DNA of 63,918 bases, the filler included, from Octopus bimaculoides (Eukaryota): NCBI RefSeq assembly GCF_001194135.2. It is 4 parts of 4 records of this genome, joined end to end, with 100 filler letters (N's around TTAATTAATTAA, not from the genome) between each part and the next. Parts side by side here need not be neighbours in the genome. Positions count along the whole stretch, not along the records: positions 31,685 to 47,443 come from NC_069001.1; positions 47,544 to 58,702 come from NC_068991.1; 2 more parts are not named here. The stretch is one strand, 5' to 3'. How positions within the stretch are numbered: the stretch's first letter is position 1; each line of letters opens with the position of its first letter. Positions 21,459 through 50,375 of the stretch are shown here, one piece after another. Made by a program: the position numbers and the translations under genes. The notes below the pieces were generated by a model, which ran no database searches, was not told the origin of the DNA, and worked only from the letters and a program-made list of their open reading frames with translations.

Positions 21459-21840
21459 ATAGAGTCAAAATTAAAAGACGAGTGCCATTTGTTATCTTGT
21501 GAACAATATTTCGACATCTTGCGTGTCTTCCACTGATTCAAAAAATAAATTTGTCAATCTACTTCATTTGGTTAATATAGAAAGGATTGAGGTAACTCCT
21601 CCTGAAGATATAGAGTCAAAATTAAAAGAAGAGTGCCATTTGCTATCTTGTGAACAATATTTCGACATATTGCGTGTCTTCCACTGGTTCAAAAATTAAA
21701 TTTGTCAATCTACTTCATTTGGTTAATATAGAATGGATTGATGTAACTCCTCCTGAAGATATAGAGTCAAAATTAAAAGAAGAGTGCCATTTGCTATCTT
21801 CTGAACAATATTTCGACATCTTGCGTGTCTTCCACTGGTT
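21459..21840. repeat. 151-bp tandem repeat, about 2.5 units
   Basis: atagagtcaaaattaaaaga starts at 21459, 21610 and 21761; units differ by a few substitutions. Confidence 0.95.
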
Positions 21841-36223: not shown

Positions 36224-36588
36224 GGTGTGTCGTCTGTGTGTAGTCTTGTTACTAGTTCTAGGGTTAGTGGGTTAAGTGAGCGCTTTCGGATCTATAATCC
36301 TTCGTCAGACTTTACACTTTACATGGTTGTTACTGTTGGCGTTGGTTAGAAGTTCATCATGCAGTTTTGTCAGTTCTCCACAGTTTTCTCTCCATTACTC
36401 TACTCTACCATCTTTCACCCTTAGCCCTTGGTTTCCCTATCGATAAACCGCTACACCCCTCCCCCAAGTATCACCTTCTCCTTCTACCTGTTCATTCTTC
36501 CCTCCTAGCTCAGCTTTACTTCTCTTAGGATAGCACCCCCTCTCACCATCCTACTACGGCGTCACCCTGTCACATCACTCTGTACTAG
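35657..36588. mobile_element. Putative short non-autonomous Penelope-related element with inverted arms and a hammerhead
   Basis: Inverted arms 35694-35899 and 36365-36589; 12-bp direct repeat aataaggtttat at 35645-35656 and 36589-36600; HHR inside. Confidence 0.5.
36271..36315 (-). ncRNA. Minimal type I hammerhead ribozyme, canonical core
   Basis: GUAAAGU-CUGACGA-A-GGAU(UAUAG)AUCC-GAAAGCGCUC-ACUUAAC: all core bases, 4-bp stem II, palindromic stem III AGCGCU, CUC cleavage triplet, stem I with one A.A mismatch. Confidence 0.8.
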
Positions 36589-39734: not shown

Positions 39735-39809
39735 TGACCTCTTCAGCGACACTTTTCGTTTCTGTACGTGTTCTTGCTCCAGAAACGAAAAGTGTCGCTG
39801 AAGAGGTCA
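39735..39809. repeat. Perfect 30-bp inverted repeat with 15-nt loop
   Basis: tgacctcttcagcgacacttttcgtttctg (39735-39764) and its exact reverse complement (39780-39809). Confidence 0.95.
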
Positions 39810-39837
39810 GAGATGTGTGACGAAAGATTTCTGGACA
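39792..39837 (+). ncRNA. Minimal type I hammerhead ribozyme, canonical core, weak stems I and III
   Basis: GUGUCG-CUGAAGA-G-GUCA(GAGAUGUG)UGAC-GAAAGAUUUC-UGGACA: core intact, stem III AGAUUU is one base from palindromic AGAUCU, UUC triplet, stem I needs wobbles and a bulge. Confidence 0.6.
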
Positions 39838-40501: not shown

Positions 40502-40950
40502 ATATAAGATTCCAGTGTAATCCATGGGTAGGAGAGGTGCAGCTGAAGTGTAGGAGAGTAAAAAGTCCAACTAGGGAATCCAGGTAGAATAGTCCGAAGT
40601 GTAGAAGGTGTAGAAAATCGAAGAAAAGTTCGTTGGGTTAAGAGGTGGAGACAAGATCAAACTGGTGCGACCACGTGATGGGGAGAATTCACAAAAAAAG
40701 ACGAAGACAGGTTGTGTAGACAACAAACAGATGTATTAGTTTAACGCTCAGGAAGTGAAAATGTCTTTTATGTTTCGAGACTACGCTCTTCCACAGACAG
40801 GAACACAGAAAGAAACAGGGAGAGAAAATAAAGAATGTGTAGTGGCTAGCGATCTGTCATAGCGAATGCCGGACAGAGGAGTCACACAGGAGAGCTAGGA
40901 AGAAGGGGAGATAATAAAGTATCGGTGATCCCAAAACGAAGGTGCGTGAG
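40502..40950 (-). mobile_element. Inverted Penelope pLTR (family D) at the 5' side of a PLE
   Basis: 40678-40900 is the reverse complement of 45760-45960 and carries the HHR-variant motif at 40763-40800. It abuts the RT fragment in opposite orientation. Confidence 0.75.
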
Positions 40951-40959
40951 CGTGTGTAT

Positions 40960-42290
40960 AAGAGAGTGGTCATGGGAACGAGAATGGGCCCCAACTATAC
41001 GAACCTGTTCGTTGGCTACGTTGAAGCCCAAATATTCTCAAGTTTCACTGGTCCCACTCCTGAACTATATTGACAACTGTATCGTTATATTGACGACTGT
41101 ATCGGTGCGACCTCACTCTCCCGCGAACATCTAGACTCCTTCCTCTCTTTTGTCAAATCTTTCCATCCTGCCCTTTACTTCTTCTGCACTATCTCTGACA
41201 CTTCTGTCTCCTTTCTTGACATTCATCACTCCACTCTCACCACCTCCATCCACTACAAACACACAGACTAACACTCATACCTCAATTTCTCCTCCTCCCA
41301 CCCTAAACACACCAAGCTCTCCATCCCCTATTCCCAATTCCTCCGTCTGCAGTGACGACCATGACTTTGAGACACAGTCTCAACTCATGGCTCGCCACTT
41401 CATCCTACGTGGATATCCCCTCACCACTATCCACACCGCCCTTGCCAGAGAACTTCTGTGAACCGTGCATCTGCTCCGCCCCCCGCACCCGTCCCACCGT
41501 CTCCCGTCTCCCGTNNNNNNNNNNNNNNNNNNNNNNNNNNNNNNNNNNNNNNNNNNNNNNNNNNNNNNNNNNNNNNNNNNNNNNNNNNNNNNNNNNNNNN
41601 NNNNNNNNNNNNNNNNNNNNNNNNNNNNNNNNNNNNNNNNNNNNNNNNNNNNNNNNNNNNNNNNNNNNNNNNNNNNNNNNNNNNNNNNNNNNNNNNNNNN
41701 NNNNNNNNNNNNNNNNNNNNNNNNNNNNNNNNNNNNNNNNNNNNNNNNNNNNNNNNNNNNNNNNNNNNNNNNNNNNNNNNNNNNNNNNNNNNNNNNNNNN
41801 NNNNNNNNNNNNNNNNNNNNNNNNNNNNNNNNNNNNTTCTCCGAGCCTTCCGGCGACTCCAGTCCGATCCTTCTCCTTCGCACATCTTCCCTAACCGACC
41901 CCTCCCCTCCTTCAAACGAGCCCATAAACGACGAAACCTCTTGGTCCACAGCTTCTTCCCTAACCCAACCTTACAACCCGATTCGTTCCCTGCTCTCGCC
42001 CATGCTTCCGCACTTGCCCTTCCGTCTCCAACACCTCAATTCTTACTGGCACCCATCGTCGACCCTATCATATCACCGACTCCTTCACCTGCACTTCTAG
42101 TAATGTCATCTACTGCATTTCCTGCTCTCTCTGCCCTTCTCTATACATCGGGCAAACGGAACGCCGCTTGGCTGACCGGTTTGCGGAACACCTCCGAGAC
42201 ATCTGACTCGGCAATGACACCCCGGTATCGCAGCATTTCCACTCTACCGGTCACACTTTGCAACACCTGTCTGTGTTCGAATTGTCAACG
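40960..42290 (+). mobile_element. 5'-truncated Penelope-like element (RT + GIY-YIG), defective
   Basis: VVMGTRMGPNYTNLFVGYVE, YIDDC (tandemly duplicated 41066-41104, frameshift), SSSHPKHTKLSIPYSQFLR, Cys linker CSRPCFRTCP, FTCTSSNVIYCISCSLCPSLYIGQTERRLADRFAEH. Confidence 0.95.
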
Positions 42291-42295
42291 GTTTT

Positions 42296-43719
42296 GATTT
42301 TATAAAGCCGACATAAATACTGGTCAACTGTGTCATGTCTTGCTTTATATTCTACAGGTGCTAAGACTCTACACCCTGAGGTTAGGTGGTCTATAGTTTC
42401 AATCTCATTGTTTCAGAATCGGCATTTTGGGTCAGCTCCATTTTTTATCACATTGGCTTGGTAGTTCCGGGTTAATAAGCTTTGGTCTTGAGCAGCTAAT
42501 ATGAAACCTTCACTCTCTGTTTTTAGTCCTGAGCTTCGTAACCATTGATGCGTGTGTTTCTGGTCGACATCAACTTGTTTGCTACATGCCACATACTTGC
42601 CATGCAGAGGTTTCTGTTCCCATCTGCTAGCTAATATTTCATGTGCTTTTGTCTTTGCAATTAATTTTATTTTCTTTCCAGCAGCAGTTGTCGCATTTCC
42701 TTCAACCTGATCAATCTGGTAGGTATCCAAGAGATCAGTAGCGAATTTTTTGCTCTCTTTCAGAATAGACTGAAGTTTTTTTCGGTCTTTCATGTTTTTC
42801 AACAAGTTTTAGCATCCAATCGTTGGTTGTTTCAAGGTATTTGGCCAGTCCGATTGTGGTGGTTTTGTACGTAAGTTCAAGCTGGTTCAAGCCTCGACCT
42901 CCCTGAGCTCTGGGAAGGTAAAGGCGATCCACGTCTGCCTTTCGATGGTGCATCTTATTACAAGTTAATTTTCATTATTTCGCTGGTATTTCAATTAAGC
43001 ACATTGAAGCTATAAAGAACAACTGGGGCTGCTAAGGAATTTATGGCTAACACTTTATTATATGCATTCAGCTCAGACTTCAGAACTGCTCGAACTCTTC
43101 TATAACATTACTTCCTAACCTTGTCTTTCATGCTTGCATGCTGGATACCAGAGCCTTCATTTATTCCTAGGTATTTATAGGTTTGTTCCTGCTCAAGTTC
43201 CTTTATTACTGTTTCGACATCTAATTCGATTGAACTTGAGTTCACCAGTTTCCCTTTCTTAAAAGTGGCTTTGTCACACTTTTCAAGGCCAAACTCCATC
43301 CCGATATCATCACTGAATCCTTTCACAGTGAGTAGTAATCCTTCAAGCTCTTCGTCATCTTTGCCATATAGTTTTAAATCACCATATAAAATAGATGGCT
43401 TATTTTCCTGTTATCAATTTTGTAGCCATACACTGTTCTATTCAGTTCACTTGAGAGTGGTATTAGTGCTATGCAGAAAATTAGTGGTGAAAGTGAGTCA
43501 CCTTGGAAAATGCCACAGTTTATGCTAATGTTGTCTGAGCGCAATACTCCATTAGAATGATATAACTGGAGCTTCGTGTTCCATATTGACATAATATACT
43601 TTAAAAATCTGAAATCACAGGAGAAATTTTGAAAATGTCCAGCGATTTCAGAATCCACGAATGTGGCATGCTGTCAAAGGCTTTTTTTAATCAATCCATG
43701 AAGAGCTGAGATTTCTGCG
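42296..43719 (-). mobile_element. R4/Dong-like non-LTR retrotransposon fragment (RT to zinc knuckle)
   Basis: KKAFDSMPHSW, GIFQGDSLSPLIFCIALIPL, FGLEKC, YKYLG, RLYLPRAQGGRGL, KPLHGKY, ESEGFILAAQDQSL, CRF...ETIDHLTSGC; truncated before the REL domain. Confidence 0.95.
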
Positions 43720-45755
43720 CTTCCAGGATTTTTCAGATGTATATTAGGGCATATCTTTCTTGCCTACGCTCTAAGGAATAGAGTCTTAATCTCTTGAGTC
43801 TCTCCCAGTAGCTTATATGCTGCATAGAGGCTATCTTCGTGTAGCTTCGTTGGAATGCTTCAAGTTCTGAGATTAATTTGACACTGGTTAGTGACCATAT
43901 CTGAGAGCAATAGTCAAAGTGGCTTAGGACAAGAGTCCTTCAGAGGACCGTCATAGTTTCCTGATCTCTTGTTCTAAAAGTTCTAAGAATCCATCCGGTC
44001 AGCCACCTGCATTTCATTGCCAATTTAGCAACCGGTACATGGAAGGATGCATCATTACTCATGTAAATGCCCAGGTCTCGCACTGACCGTGCTTCTGGTA
44101 TTACAATCCCTCCAGGTCCTGTGTATTTAATGAGTATTGCATTTAGTTTTGCATGTTGATAGCACAAGGCTTGAAACTTTTCAGCATTAAACAGTATGCT
44201 ATTCTTTTCAGCCCACTTGTATATTTTATCCAGCTCACATTGCTGGTGCATAGTGTCTTCAGGGTTCTGTATTACCTGTGAGACTTTTGTATCATCTGCA
44301 TAACTTGTGATCGTGGCTCTCTATGTGGCTGAGAGTATATCTGAGGGCCATTATGAACAGTAGTGGTCCCAAAACAGTGCCTTGCGGAACACCGCTCACT
44401 ATCTGCGTGTCATTGGAGGTGGCCCCATTGGCTACTACCACTTGACTTCTATCCTTCAGAAAGTCATGAAGCCATTCACCCAATTTTCCAACTATGCCGA
44501 GATCACGCAGTTTGTGACATATCATTCCATGATCGACTTTATCAAAGGCCTTGAAAAGTCCAGGTATATTACTTCCACATCTGAGTGGTTGAGCAGCTGT
44601 TTCAGCACCCAGTCATAGTACTGTAAGAGCTGAGTTAGGCAGTTTCTTCTTGGTCGGAAACCATGTTGGCTGTCAGGCAGTAAGTCACTTTCTTCAAGGA
44701 AGGCGATTTGTTTTCTTCTGACTATTCGTTCCATGACCATGTTGATGTGCGAGGTCAGAGAGATAGATATGTAGTTCTTGGCCTCTGCTCTGCTACCTCC
44801 TTTATGTATAGGGCATATATTACCCTCCTTCAGTTTTCTTGGAAGTTTGCCAATTGCAAGGAAGCTCTGAAAGAGGGACTGCTAGGACTCGCGTACATGC
44901 TTTTAGAAGGATTGCTGGGAATCCATCGGGGCCAGTAGCTGAGTTTGGGTTCATTTCATCTATAGCTCTTATTACATCGTCTTCCTTCATATTGATGTAA
45001 TCGATCATCACTGCCTTTGTTTTTATATCTGCAGTGGTAAAAACGTCAGTTGGATTTCTGACTTGCAAGTGTCCTAGGGGTGGAGTAAAAGTACTTTAGA
45101 ATTGCTCATTAAGTATTTCATTTATCCTCATTAAGTATTTCATTTATCCTCATTGAAGCTGTTACTTTGGAAAACTTGTAGAAAGCTCTGGGGTTAGATT
45201 TTATATTGTCTATAGTCGAGGCTTCTTTGCTCTTTCTTTTTCATGGGAGCGCTGCAGATTTTTTTTTCAATCTCCAGCAGTTGTATTATCAGGCGGGACT
45301 TTTCACTGCTTTCAATTTGTTTGTTAAGGCGATTTGAAACTTTTGTACGCCGTCTCATAAGAATTTTCCTTTCACTGGGGATTTTGTTCTTGTGTACAGT
45401 GGCCTTTCTCTCCGGAAAACATTTGTAGCATATGGCTTGCATTACAGAAATGAATTATTGAAGTTTCATGTCGATGTCCGGTGAGGAGAGACATTTAGGC
45501 AGGTTTGTTTGAGGATCACTTTCTCAATTTGTTTCCAGTTTGCCTTATGGAAGTTCAAATTGGAAAGATTCTGAGAGTTTCTTGTAGGTTGCATGTCCAT
45601 GGTTTCCATTGGTCCGTACATGGTCAGCTCTACCATGTTGTGATCCGTGAGTAGTGTCGGTGTCACTTTCACATTATGGATGAGATCCATATTATTTGTG
45701 AAGCAGAGATCCAGTATGTTACCTGCCCTGGTTGGTTGGAGAACTATTTGTTCCA
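43720..45755 (-). mobile_element. CR1-type LINE ORF2 relic (APE C-terminus + RT)
   Basis: PTRAGNILDLCFTN...TDHN, TGPDGFPA, QHGFRPRRNCLTQL, IYLDFS, GVPQGTVLGPLLF, YADDTK, RYALIYI; many frameshifts. Confidence 0.95.
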
Positions 45756-45759
45756 TTTA

Positions 45760-45960
45760 CAATGAGGTTCAGGAGGGACTTCACCTGTCCGCCACTACAC
45801 ATTCTTTTTTCTCTCCTTGTTTCTTTCCGTGTTTCTTTCTGTGGAAGAGCGTAGGCTCGAAACGTTAAAGACTTTTTCACTTTCCCAGCGTTATACTAAT
45901 ACATCTGTTTATTGTCTACACCACCTGTCTTCGTCTTTTTTTGTGTGTGAATTCTCCCTA
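45760..45960 (+). mobile_element. Penelope pLTR fragment (family D) with hammerhead-variant motif
   Basis: tcttt-ctgtgga-a-gagc-gtag-gctc-gaaacgtt-aaaga at 45834-45871. Confidence 0.8.
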
Positions 45961-46389
45961 TATATATATATATATNNNNNNNNNNNNNNNNNNNNNNNNN
46001 NNNNNNNNNNNNNNNNNNNNNNNNNNNNNNNNNNNNNNNNNNNNNNNNNNNNNNNNNNNNNNNNNNNNNNNNNNNNNATGTTAGAAAAATGTTATAAAAT
46101 TTTGCGTATAGTAACATTGTTTTTGGAGAAATAACCGGTTTCGTATTTTCTTTTCAAATTTCTCAAATTTCTTTACCTATATTGTGTCATCTCTTCGCTA
46201 TTTTGTGAAGAATGGAGTTCCAGACAGGGGAAGGTAATCAGGGATTTTTTCGGTATCAGGGAGATAATCGAAAATGTTGGGAATGACTAGGTTTTATGAA
46301 TTTAACTTGATTTGGTTTTAAAAGAATAGAATGTTACATGTGGCTAGGTTTTGCTTTATATTTTTCTCAATGAGGTAAGTTTTCTTATT

Positions 46390-47443
46390 TAAAAATGTTA
46401 GAAATGGTTAAGTTTTGGCTTATATTTTTCAATGAAGTAGGTTTCCTTATTTAATCTAACTTGCGTTGGTGTTCCAATGGCACATTGATAAAATGGGAAG
46501 ATTACAAATTGTGGTAGCAGTTGCTTTGCGCGTTTCTCAATATGTTCACTAAAGGCTATCTTTCTGTACTCTGGTAATGCAATCTGCTGTCGGTGGAAAG
46601 TCCATCTGCGTCTGAGCGATAATCTCGTGGATCCTATGTAGTTTTGGTGGCAGCCCGTGCTTCTTATAACATAAATCAGGTTTTCTGAAGCACAAGTAAA
46701 GTCAGATTTGATCTTGAATTTTTTTCCCTCTTTGAAAAGGAATTCTGATCCTTCTAGAAGGTTTGGGCATGTTGCACAATTTGGTCAACCACATTTTTCA
46801 CTTTTGCGTCCGTTATTTTAGAAAATAATTTTGCCTTTGTGGGGATCTTTTTTAGTGATCTGGTTGTTTGTGGCTTTTAACGATCTTATGTGTGTGTAAA
46901 ATTTCCTTTAATTTGGGGTTCTTATGTAGCATTGGTAAATTTGGGGTGATGATGGTAAAGGCGTCTTTGTTTCTGGGGTTGTATGTGGATATGTACGGCA
47001 ATATTTTCGGGGAAGGTGTGTTGCTGTGTTGAACTTTTCTTAGGTTTCTATGTCAATTTGTGTTGCACGTCTGATTCCATCCTTTATGAGTTGAACTGGG
47101 TAGTGTCTGTCAATCAGGGTGTTTTTGAGTTCTTGCAGTCTAAGGTCTCTGGTATTTTTTCTGACACTATTGTGCATATCCTTCTTGCAAGGTTGAAGGG
47201 GATATTTATTTTGGTGTGTCTTGGGTGGCATGAATTAAATAGTAGATATTGTTTGGCGTCTGAGGTTTTGTAAAATATGTCCGTTTCTATTTTTAGGTTT
47301 AATTTTTAAATTAGTATATCCAAGAATGGGAGCTCTTTTTGGTTGTACTCCATTGCGAACTGTATGTTTGGGTTGATGCTGTTCAATAGTCTTTTGAATT
47401 TCAGAAGTGTGTCTGTGTTTTCATTCCAGAGTATGAAACAGTC
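46390..47443 (-). mobile_element. Penelope-like element of a second, A-rich family (RT thumb + GIY-YIG)
   Basis: DCFILWNE...INPNIQFAME...LPFLDI, YLLFNSCHPRHTKINIPFNLARRI, PNCATCP, FTCASENLIYVI...NYIGST; cut by the linker at 47444. Confidence 0.9.
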
Positions 47444-47543
47444 NNNNNNNNNNNNNNNNNNNNNNNNNNNNNNNNNNNNNNNNNNNNTTAATTAATTAAN
47501 NNNNNNNNNNNNNNNNNNNNNNNNNNNNNNNNNNNNNNNNNNN
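47444..47543. other. Artificial scaffold-join linker (44N-TTAATTAATTAA-44N)
   Basis: Same 100-bp layout as 31585. Confidence 0.9.
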
Positions 47544-47608
<65 letters not shown>

Positions 47609-47633
47609 TGTATGTATGTATGTATGTATGTAT

Positions 47634-47945
47634 GGAAGAATACTTGGCCTAGTTAGGGTGTTGTACTCACGATCGCAGTATCGTAGGTTCGATTCCCGCA
47701 GCGGACGGAGTGTTGCGTTCTCGAGCAAAGCACTTCATCTCACCCATGTTGCCCTGTGATCACTTTGACATCTGACATGTCACACCATGCTCTTGTATAC
47801 GTAACGTCAATTTGATGGAGGGACTGAGCTAATGTGGAGCACAAACATTTAATCACTACAAACAAATTATCCGCGCAACTTACTCCGCGAAACATTGCAG
47901 AAACTTTATCTGTCATCAACGACAGGCGGAACCATGAATCCATGT
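47634..47945 (+). mobile_element. Family A tRNA-derived SINE
   Basis: A-box tggcctagttagg, B-box ggttcgattcc (47686-47696), ttctcgagcaaagcactt CORE-like segment. Confidence 0.75.
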
Positions 47946-48135
47946 ACATACATACATACATACATACATACATACACACACATACATACATACATACATA
48001 CATACATACATACATACACACACACACATACATACATACATACATACATACATACATACATACGTACATACATACATACATACATACATACATACATACA
48101 TACATACATACATACATACATGCGTACGTACGTAC
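47944..48135. repeat. (TACA)n microsatellite
   Basis: Direct. Confidence 0.95.
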
Positions 48136-48739
48136 GTATTCACATGGATACATGTGAGTGTGCATGTTGAGTATATTATGTGTGGGCATATGTGTGACTA
48201 CCTCACGCTTAACCTTGGCCGTCACAAATACTTTGGTGTGTAATTCCAAGTTTTGTCTTTCACAATGAAGAATATGTATGAAAGACAAGAGATACCGTCC
48301 AACAAAGCAAACGAATTACTGTATTTGTTGTAGCATCTACTAAACACCTCATTTCTTTAAAAAAAATCTTTTTTTTTTTACTTTATATCCGATAACAAAA
48401 TAGCCAAGATGCTTTTCGTTGTTGCAGAGGTAATTATTTATTGCGCAATATATATATTAGGATGAAGTTGGAAATCTAATTAAAGACAAGATGTATGTAT
48501 AGATTTTTCTCAAAGCTTGTTATCATTACCAATTACAAAATTGAGAGAGGCTAATGGAACAAGTCTTCGAATGTACATTTACATAAATGCATGACTGAAA
48601 GCTGTGTTTTTACAGAATGGAAAACTTGTCATTGTGCCAAGAATTAAAGTGAAGCCTCACACCATTTTACCAGTCTCTGATATGCAAATACAGCTTGCAG
48701 TTCGAGAAGCGCTAGCCATAACAACCATTATCTTTAGGC

Positions 48740-48787
<48 letters not shown>

Positions 48788-48806
48788 NNNNNNNNNNNNN
48801 NNNNNN

Positions 48807-48932
48807 TTCTGTTGAAGAGCGTAGCTCGAAACGTCAAAGACTTTCCGTATTCCCGAGCGTCATACTAATATATACTTTTGTTATTTACACCACCTGTCCT
48901 CGTCTGTTGTTATTATTTGTATATTCTCCCAT
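48807..48932 (+). mobile_element. Family D pLTR fragment with hammerhead-variant motif
   Basis: tt-ctgttga-a-gagc-gta-gctc-gaaacgtc-aaaga at 48807-48840; 5' side is in an N gap. Confidence 0.8.
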
Positions 48933-49555
48933 ATATATATATTTATACATATGTGCGCGCGTGCGCGCGCGCGTGTGTGTGTGTGTAGATAGATTGATAG
49001 ATAGATAGATAGAAAATAGTGTACATTTAAACACAAGAGAAAACTATCTTTAACAGGTAATTTTACACGCTAGAAGAAGCAGTCAAAACCACATTTAAGA
49101 GCAATTTCAAAGGGAATGAAAAATAAAAACTTTTATTTTGTTATTCTTTTACGGTTATATCTAGGTTTCGAATTTTATTTAGCAAATAAAATAATTTGCT
49201 AGGCGAAATTCTCATCAGTAACCGCGCCATAATATTAACATATCATTTAAAGACAAATAACACGTGTCTCATCATTATATGTTATAATTTTTCAAATTCA
49301 CCGCGCAAGCTCAGTTTCAGTCGGCAGTAAATGAAAAATGTCGAACTGATGTTCGAAATGCTAAAATCATATACGTAAAATATATAAGGTAGCGAATACT
49401 TTTAGAAATTTCACTACCAGTGGCCTAGCATGTATAAAACTCAATAGACAACATATTCTCAATATAAAATAGTGTACATTTAAACACAAGAGAAATAAAT
49501 AGAGAAATATATAATAAAAATATTAAAAACTAAAAATAAAAATAAAATAAAATAA

Positions 49556-49594
<39 letters not shown>

Positions 49595-50209
49595 NNNNNN
49601 NNNNNNNNNNNNNNNNNNNNNNNNNNNNNNNNNNNNNNNNNNNNNNNNNNNNNNNNNNNNNNNNNNNNNNNNNNNNNNNNNNNNNNNNNNNNNNNNNNNN
49701 NNNNNNNNNNNNNNNNNNNNNNNNNNNNNNNNNNNNNNNNNNNNNNNNNNNNNNNNNNNNNNNNNNNNNNNNNNNNNNNNNNNNNNNNNNNNNNNNNNNN
49801 NNNNNNNNNNNNNNNNNNNNNNNNNNNNNNNNNNNNNNNNNNNNNNNNNNNNNNNNNNNNNNNNNNNNNNNNNNNNNNNNNNNNNNNNNNNNNNNNNNNN
49901 NNNNNNNNNNNNNNNNNNNNNNNNNNNNNNNNNNNNNNNNNNNNNNNNNNNNNNNNNNNNNNNNNNNNNNNNNNNNNNNNNNNNNNNNNNNNNNNNNNNN
50001 NNNNNNNNNNNNNNNNNNNNNNNNNNNNNNNNNNNNNNNNNNNNNNNNNNNNNNNNNNNNNNNNNNNNNNNNNNNNNNNNNNNNNNNNNNNNNNNNNNNN
50101 NNNNNNNNNNNNNNNNNNNNNNNNNNNNNNNNNNNNNNNNNNNNNNNNNNNNNNNNNNNNNNNNNATATATATATATATATATAAATATATCGTTGACCA
50201 AACACCATT

Positions 50210-50375
50210 CAATTTTTTTTTCTCCTTGTTTTCTCCGTATTCTTTCTGTTGACGAGCGTAGCTCGAAACGTTAAAGACTTTCAGTATTCCCGAGCGTCAA
50301 ACTAATACATCCTTTTGTTGTTTACACCACCTGTCCTCGACTGTTGTTGTCTTTTTTTTCGTACATTCTCCCATA
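50210..50375 (+). mobile_element. Family D pLTR fragment with hammerhead-variant motif
   Basis: tcttt-ctgttga-c-gagc-gta-gctc-gaaacgtt-aaaga at 50241-50277. Confidence 0.8.

Follow-up and report, generated by a model that had tools for sequence, protein, structure and literature searches.

A stretch of 63,918 nucleotides of the Octopus bimaculoides genome (hereafter the window), made of four joined parts, carries four copies of a minimal hammerhead motif in which the canonical A at core position 6 is replaced by U (U6). They belong to a family of Penelope elements whose U6 hammerhead, judging by genome-wide pattern matches, is present in more than 10,000 copies. Apart from position 6, the motif changed very little as the family diversified, which suggests that it is likely a slowed ribozyme under selection. 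We assign a probability of about 0.5 to the reading that it cuts slowly, only as a dimer or together with the element's protein, and is still kept by selection. An earlier note, made from the letters of the window alone, had proposed a Penelope family with a fixed and ancestral U6, and our results confirm part of that proposal and revise another.

All four copies reported in the note were recovered at the expected coordinates, each with a U at hammerhead position 6. Copies 1 and 2 lie in one part of the window and copies 3 and 4 in another, with the joint at 47444–47543. The core reads CUGUGGA at 40763–40800 (minus strand) and 45834–45871, and CUGUUGA at 48807–48840 and 50241–50277. At the junction between A9 and stem II every window copy has one extra nucleotide (A, A, A and C), a feature absent from the note. 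The hammerhead geometry that the note described as largely kept was indeed seen in stem II (GAGC/GCUC) and in GAAA-CGU-H, both intact in the 45834, 48807 and 50241 copies, but the full stem I (UCUUU/AAAGA) is present only at 45834 and 50241; in the 48807 copy the 5′ strand of stem I is lost to an N gap. The 40763 copy is, as had been noticed, more decayed: stem II has a broken pair, ACAU stands instead of the palindromic ACGU, a single stem I pair is left beside the core, and N17 is A. A BLAST search of the window with three copies revealed none beyond the known four.

Fixation of U6 was studied in the whole genome (2.34 Gb), with reversed patterns as a control. A pattern for the young motif that allowed any base at positions 6 and 7 and at the extra nucleotide yielded 4,533 matches and none in the control, and a looser U6 pattern yielded 10,088 (control, 91); thus, the motif is not a chance occurrence. 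Position 6 is U in 4,498 of the 4,533 young-type matches, and the other 35 (29 C, 4 A and 2 G) look like private mutations. The A6 counterpart of the looser pattern gave 2,844 matches (control, 79). Among the A6-pattern matches listed, 11/100 start at a shifted place, and those whose flank was read are C6 copies of the U6 family.

As such patterns select on the core, we also gathered copies by anchors in the 3′ flank (4,449 and 5,296 matches). The sample took the first 30 rows of the second anchor and 90 of the 100 listed rows of the first, without its last six, three copies truncated before the motif and a C6 copy duplicating L112. These 120 unique copies and the four window copies, minus one truncated copy, gave 123 for analysis. 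In these mostly flank-anchored copies position 6 is U in 115, C in 5, A in 2 and G in 1. U6 predominates in every subfamily, at median divergences of ~3% to 10%, figures that overstate age owing to the coarse grouping. The canonical core C3 U4 G5 A6 N7 G8 A9 is rare in the family, with A6 in 4/4,533 and 2/123, and young copies with A6 are far from a majority. Together with the copies linked to an open reading frame (ORF; 12/12, see below), these counts bear out the claim that U6 is fixed in young and old subfamilies alike. The motif, irrespective of its base at position 6, also occurs in DNA sequencing runs labelled as four organisms; among the runs listed with it, none is recorded as RNA.

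The remaining anatomy is that of a minimal hammerhead. Stems I and II, the G10.1-C11.1 pair and the extra nucleotide at 9/10.1 are found in the family, a palindromic ACGU takes the place of helix III, and the cut site is of the NUH type (N17 is G in 1/123). G12 is retained in 113 of the 123 copies, A13 and A14 in 122 each, A15.1 in 120, C15.2 and G16.2 in 111 each and U16.1 in all 123. A shifted register with a UGA(A/C)GA core was rejected, because stem II is broken in it and U4 falls on a column that varies among all four bases. In the chosen register, the alignment to sister families with A6 needs no gaps.

The note had also supposed that the variant would be invisible to standard searches. 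This is true of CUGANGA descriptors. Rfam detected no hammerhead in the 45834 and 50241 copies, nor in an A6 sister (L094), and none among the window matches listed (150/195); the failure is not caused by U6, and these scans are uninformative because the canonical A6 control was missed too.

Judging by their surroundings, the four motifs are the 3′ ends of the pseudo-long terminal repeats (pLTRs) of an endonuclease-bearing, Neptune-like Penelope element. The pLTR ends are ragged on the 5′ side and share a 3′ terminus, which lies ~95 nucleotides (nt) downstream of the motif and in many cases precedes a TA repeat. The TA repeat follows 42 of the 66 anchor matches with a recognised terminal motif; 62 further matches are without one. 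Beside copy 1, on the opposite strand, lies a decayed ORF with reverse transcriptase (RT) motifs and GIY-YIG, and in relatives of this ORF (also L061, L084 and L089) the pLTR is downstream on the same strand. In 12/30 endonuclease loci the motif was found 294–1156 nt downstream of the ORF, each time with U6. This supports the assignment of the motif to a Penelope pLTR family with a minimal hammerhead. The GIY-YIG domain matched Pfam at E=0.004–0.005, below the curated cut-off; a Pfam search of three RT pieces gave no match, and the RT motifs were identified by eye. The linker CSRPRCRTC (L063) fits the CX2-5CxxC that precedes GIY-YIG in the Neptune/Nematis type; the Neptune-clade placement rests on this linker, which Nematis shares, hence Neptune-like. 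No intact full-length element was identified, and the 30 examined endonuclease loci represent older subfamilies. The inverted pLTR lying back to back with the 5′-truncated ORF is a known Penelope arrangement (PMC8557442; cited papers are used here to the extent of their available text). A non-LTR retrozyme, with ORF-less tandem repeats and one hammerhead in each unit, was considered and rejected: the copies are dispersed, 5′-truncated, linked to an ORF and share a 3′ end.

Neighbouring copy pairs are few and mostly of different subfamilies. Younger copies often follow older G7 copies 180–280 nt further downstream and share their orientation (L012, L044, L204, L238 and L271), an arrangement consistent with insertion into the TA tail of the earlier copy; such pairs could provide dimer partners. 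The inverted pLTR of copy 1 extends past the usual 3′ end (window 40505–40682, minus strand), as do similar pieces in L121, L199, L223 and L227. The extension, likely the start of the next tandem unit, contains a pyrimidine tract and a CAG, a candidate 3′ splice site.

The origin of U6 can be traced by comparison with A6 sister families in the same genome, which have homologous 3′ flanks and stem II. Since these families keep A6, U6 is derived; it is ancestral, as the earlier note had it, within the U6 lineage but not beyond it. On a stem I background of the U6 type, 51 matches carry A6 or G6 (40 A and 11 G), a mild excess of A (p=0.014). On a tree built with N6 removed, whose root is unstable, most of them are scattered among U6 copies, and a small old A6 remnant (e.g., L395) may persist.

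The sister families themselves vary. One of them, with loop II UCC, includes a subfamily with G17, i.e., a GUG triplet, which is normally a poor cut site; it is seen in about ten copies (L095, L116, L361–L366, L377 and L069, in G000:C1 and C4). Other members of this A6 family (L368–L370) display stem II covariation. In L032:1400-1650 (G000:C1:189909480), a chimeric copy begins with a sister-family 5′ flank and A6 core and continues, from a junction inside the hammerhead, as U6-family 3′ sequence; a template switch is the likely cause. Additionally, a GAGCGUY-N2-3-CUAAUAC-like motif ~20 nt downstream of the hammerhead (e.g., window 50292–50308) is kept in both the U6 lineage and the A6 sisters and could serve as a branch-point-like signal or be bound by a protein. 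We also considered whether the downstream GAGCG might pair with the stem II 3′ strand and dropped the idea, as no covariation was seen by eye.

Evidence for selection on the motif comes from the placement of changes on a tree. Because changes after insertion are neutral, we compared subfamily-level changes, i.e., those on internal branches and carried by at least 4 copies, with private ones; the tree, of 154 columns, is weakly resolved. The core and stems show 2 subfamily-level changes versus 138 private ones, and the flanks 57 versus 519 (Fisher p=0.0004; p=0.003 against the 3′ flanks alone). For the stems alone the ratio is 0 to 92. No subfamily-level change affects G8, A9, G12, A13, A14, A15.1 or U16.1. 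Where the motif did change, it changed mainly at N7 (U63/G34/C20/A6 in the 123 copies) and N17 (U63/A37/C22/G1): 5/7 of the subfamily-level substitutions in the motif fall there (p=0.004 when all 7 free columns among the 36 are counted), and in the young subfamily loop II became one base shorter. N7, N17 and loop II are the positions that hammerheads leave free. A consensus with these free positions has been published (PMC4209133, Fig. S3). The absence of G17 and the constancy of U6 are not significant on their own, because the events are so few. Coding constraint on the motif was rejected, given the 1-nt loop II indel in the youngest subfamily.

Stem covariation, listed as a check in the note, was seen across the sister families but not inside the U6 lineage, where no compensatory stem changes were found. 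Across 19 distinct U6 and A6 motifs, 4/8 pairs change on both sides and 0/500 shuffles match the covariation score, which is inflated by relatedness, as the motifs are hand-picked and related.

The two subfamily-level core changes are a replacement of U4 by A and its return. Matches without U4 number 555, and CAG was read in 88/100 among those listed. This CAGUUGA subfamily (U4A together with A6U) includes both loop lengths and stands at the base of the young clade on the tree. Upstream of the motif, its flank nearly repeats the stem I-CUGU segment, and in the early young copies L040, L159 and L169 the flank is joined directly to the remaining core, which amounts to a 12-nt deletion. The youngest burst thus likely arose from the U4A lineage by a 12-nt deletion that restored U4 and kept U6; we infer this order from the tree and the intermediate L040.

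These data suggest the following course of events. A6 would have changed to U once in a master element, and later masters would have retained the two stems along with the catalytic G8 and G12. Fast cutting would be dispensable, because reverse transcription, beginning ~95 nt downstream, passes through the site while it is uncut. Selection would then preserve rare or late cutting, for example the trimming of tandem transcripts.

A number of observations weigh against such a slowed but selected ribozyme. Cut templates should make 5′ truncations pile up after N17. Using the young-copy pattern without the 5′ core, we obtained 114 matches and counted 100 listed rows by hand; among these there was no excess at the cut site (8/100): a further 5 truncations lay one base downstream, 5 lay two bases downstream, and two other spots of TA microhomology had 10 and 6. 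A scripted subset of 30 rows was likewise spread out. Such truncations make up an estimated 0.5% or so of roughly 3,700 anchored young copies; the A6 sister control (22 matches, about 4–5 truncations) is too small and lacks a denominator. RNA ends after GUC/GUU, another check named in the note, did not pile up either. In three unstranded RNA sequencing runs, whose species may differ from that of the window, ~6% of each gave 1,905–2,437 reads per run with even depth across the cut site and no pile-up of read ends there. This is weak evidence, because most reads are probably read-through of solo copies. In folding predictions, seven U6 copies with an intact ACGU prefer an alternative hairpin to the open hammerhead, with U6 paired into the GAAACG strand (G5-C15.2 and U6-A15.1); isolated A6 sister motifs are predicted to misfold as well. 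The core taken alone (2 versus 46, p=0.30) is not significantly more conserved than the flanks. The U4A+A6U double core mutant spread to ~490 exact copies, and the A6 sister subfamily with G17 spread as well, so catalysis in the clade looks relaxed. Natural core variants, which the note had called uncommon, are less rare in this clade. At least two U4 copies underwent the 12-nt deletion as well; its site may be a mutational hotspot, and for this reason the deletion need not be selected. Finally, pairwise mutagenesis left all CUGA-turn mutants with low activity except a C3-G8 swap (PMC9901934).

In the same RNA runs (X21–X23) we observed a highly transcribed copy lacking the 5′ half of the hammerhead, with 200–400 reads per run at one loose end (window 50260).

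The note had set a functional variant against a fold retained after lost catalysis. These remain the right pair of alternatives, not separable by sequence. The main rival to a slowed ribozyme, tentative but serious, is that the U6 motif no longer cuts and that its fold, or the alternative hairpin, is kept as a binding site for the element's protein or a host factor. It would account for the spread of the U4A+A6U and G17 subfamilies, for copies that read through the cut site, for RNA ends without a pile-up and for the predicted G5-C15.2 and U6-A15.1 pairs, and it agrees with a conservation signal that comes largely from the stems (0 versus 92), not from the core alone. Moreover, in one in vitro system insertion did not need hammerhead cleavage (PMC11167929), and Naiad elements thrive without canonical hammerheads (PMC8557442). 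A non-cutting fold fits less well with seven positions free of subfamily-level change (G8, A9, G12, A13, A14, A15.1 and U16.1) and variation exactly on the catalytically free N7 and N17, or with the return of U4 in the most successful recent lineage; besides, A6C hammerheads keep measurable activity (PMC7151607). A doubtful, though possible, variant on the active side is that the CUGU-core hammerhead still cuts, gated by a protein, dimerisation or a metal ion, and that the family is a record of loss and partial repair.

It seems improbable that there was no selection at the RNA level, U6 having hitchhiked in a successful master and the conservation being due to chance or to a signal in the DNA, for example an internal promoter. 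The few subfamily-level events, the weakly resolved tree, several flank columns that are invariant too and the absence of compensatory change in the lineage would fit such a history; the deficit of changes in core and stems, the concentration on N7 and N17 and a loop II indel that speaks against coding constraint do not. Even less credible is a fully active U6 core, compensated by the extra A at 9/10.1, a dimer or a protein. U6 did last through at least 5 subfamilies with no A6 subfamily taking over, but A6 Penelope motifs, too, normally have the extra nucleotide (PMC4209133, and A6 matches in this genome), no double mutant rescued changes in the CUGA turn (PMC9901934), and in one fast hammerhead A6C cost >10,000-fold in Mg2+ relative to Mn2+ (PMC7151607).

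A slowed ribozyme has precedents. A natural A6C core retains low activity, with slow cutting that improves in Mn2+ (PMC3088659; PMC7151607), the minimal hammerheads of Penelope elements cut slowly and depend on dimers (PMC4209133), and a hammerhead of an anole Penelope cuts only with protein, is dispensable for insertion in vitro and shows no RNA sequencing ends (PMC11167929). The closest known system is the minimal hammerhead of Cervera and De la Pena 2014 (PMC4209133), likewise type I with a short stem I, the extra nucleotide at A9/G10.1 (a standard trait there), G10.1-C11.1, palindromic 15.2/16.2, a U-rich 5′ flank, a 3′ pLTR position and thousands of solo truncated copies. Its consensus is CUGANGAH, with A6 in every row of Fig. 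S3 examined and U3-A8 as a core variant, whereas in our family U6 is fixed and one subfamily has U4A. The phage Bcep176 hammerhead (Perreault 2011, PMC3088659; Naghdi 2020, PMC7151607) shares a natural substitution at position 6 and low cleavage; it differs in having C, not U, in being one phage locus versus >10,000 copies, and in not being a minimal dimer-type motif. Anolis Poseidon PAc (Frangieh 2024, PMC11167929) resembles our element in its pLTR hammerhead, copies made from uncut RNA, absence of RNA sequencing ends at the site and AT-rich targets. The PAc motif overlaps the ORF start, and the available text reports no change at position 6; in the U6 element, which has a Neptune-type linker, the loop indel argues against coding overlap. 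Neptune-clade elements (Craig 2021, PMC8557442) share the RT, the CX2-5CxxC linker, GIY-YIG, (TA)n targets and the inverted 5′-truncated arrangement, the likeness resting on a linker common to Nematis. A literature search found no A6U or U6 in Penelope or other natural hammerheads; it did not cover Lünse et al. (RNA Biol 14:1499) or the supplements of Perreault 2011, Naghdi 2020, Craig 2021 and Roberts 2023.

Features of the U6 Penelope family in the window
Feature	Position	Strand	Details
Decayed minimal hammerhead	40763..40800	-	C3=40796, U6=40793, A17=40769
Inverted pLTR piece with the 40763 motif	40502..40960	-	~180 nt beyond usual 3′ end
5′-truncated decayed Penelope ORF, same family	40961..42290	+	GTRMGP, YIDD, cysteine linker, GIY-YIG; N gap at 41515-41836
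Minimal hammerhead, older G7/U17 subfamily	45834..45871	+	U6=45842, loop II GUAG, U17=45866
5′-truncated pLTR end with the 45834 motif, TA repeat at end	45790..45960	+	5′ bound approximate
Minimal hammerhead, youngest subfamily	48807..48840	+	U6=48812, C17=48835
pLTR 3′ part of the 48807 copy, TA repeat at end	48807..48930	+	
Minimal type I hammerhead, young subfamily	50241..50277	+	C3=50246, U6=50249, extra nt 50253, loop II GUA, predicted cut after U17=50272
5′-truncated pLTR end with the 50241 motif, TA repeats at both ends	50190..50373	+	bounds approximate

Other features of the window are worth recording. At 46078–47443 (minus strand), cut by the joint, lies a decayed ORF that belongs to another Penelope family and includes GIY-YIG and a cysteine linker. 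Hammerhead-like motifs with canonical CUGANGA cores occur in other repeat families at 39798–39826 (plus) and 36283–36308 (minus), and at 21508–21837 (minus) there are three tandem repeats ~151 nt apart with a hammerhead-like CAGUGGA...GAAA.

Penelope elements carry the hammerhead almost universally, although it is slow in vitro and, in one such system, not required for insertion. By its sequence, the motif described here belongs to a known ribozyme class as a core variant with a high copy number: its layout and position are those of a Penelope minimal hammerhead, without the canonical A6. To this class our analysis adds a selection test at the subfamily level, a U4A intermediate with a likely reversal and a G17 sister. 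Censuses based on descriptors undercount such motifs (10,088 U6 versus 2,844 A6 matches here). The forms A6, A6+G17, U6, U6+A4 and U6 with U4 regained form a natural series, matched in that their scaffolds are nearly identical, with known amplification records. If a CUGU-core hammerhead does still cut, the lineage would record A6U, then U4A, then the return of U4 through a repeat-mediated deletion just ahead of the largest recent burst. CUGANGA descriptors would then overlook the most abundant minimal hammerhead of this genome, and selection would be seen to tune the speed of a ribozyme in a transposon.

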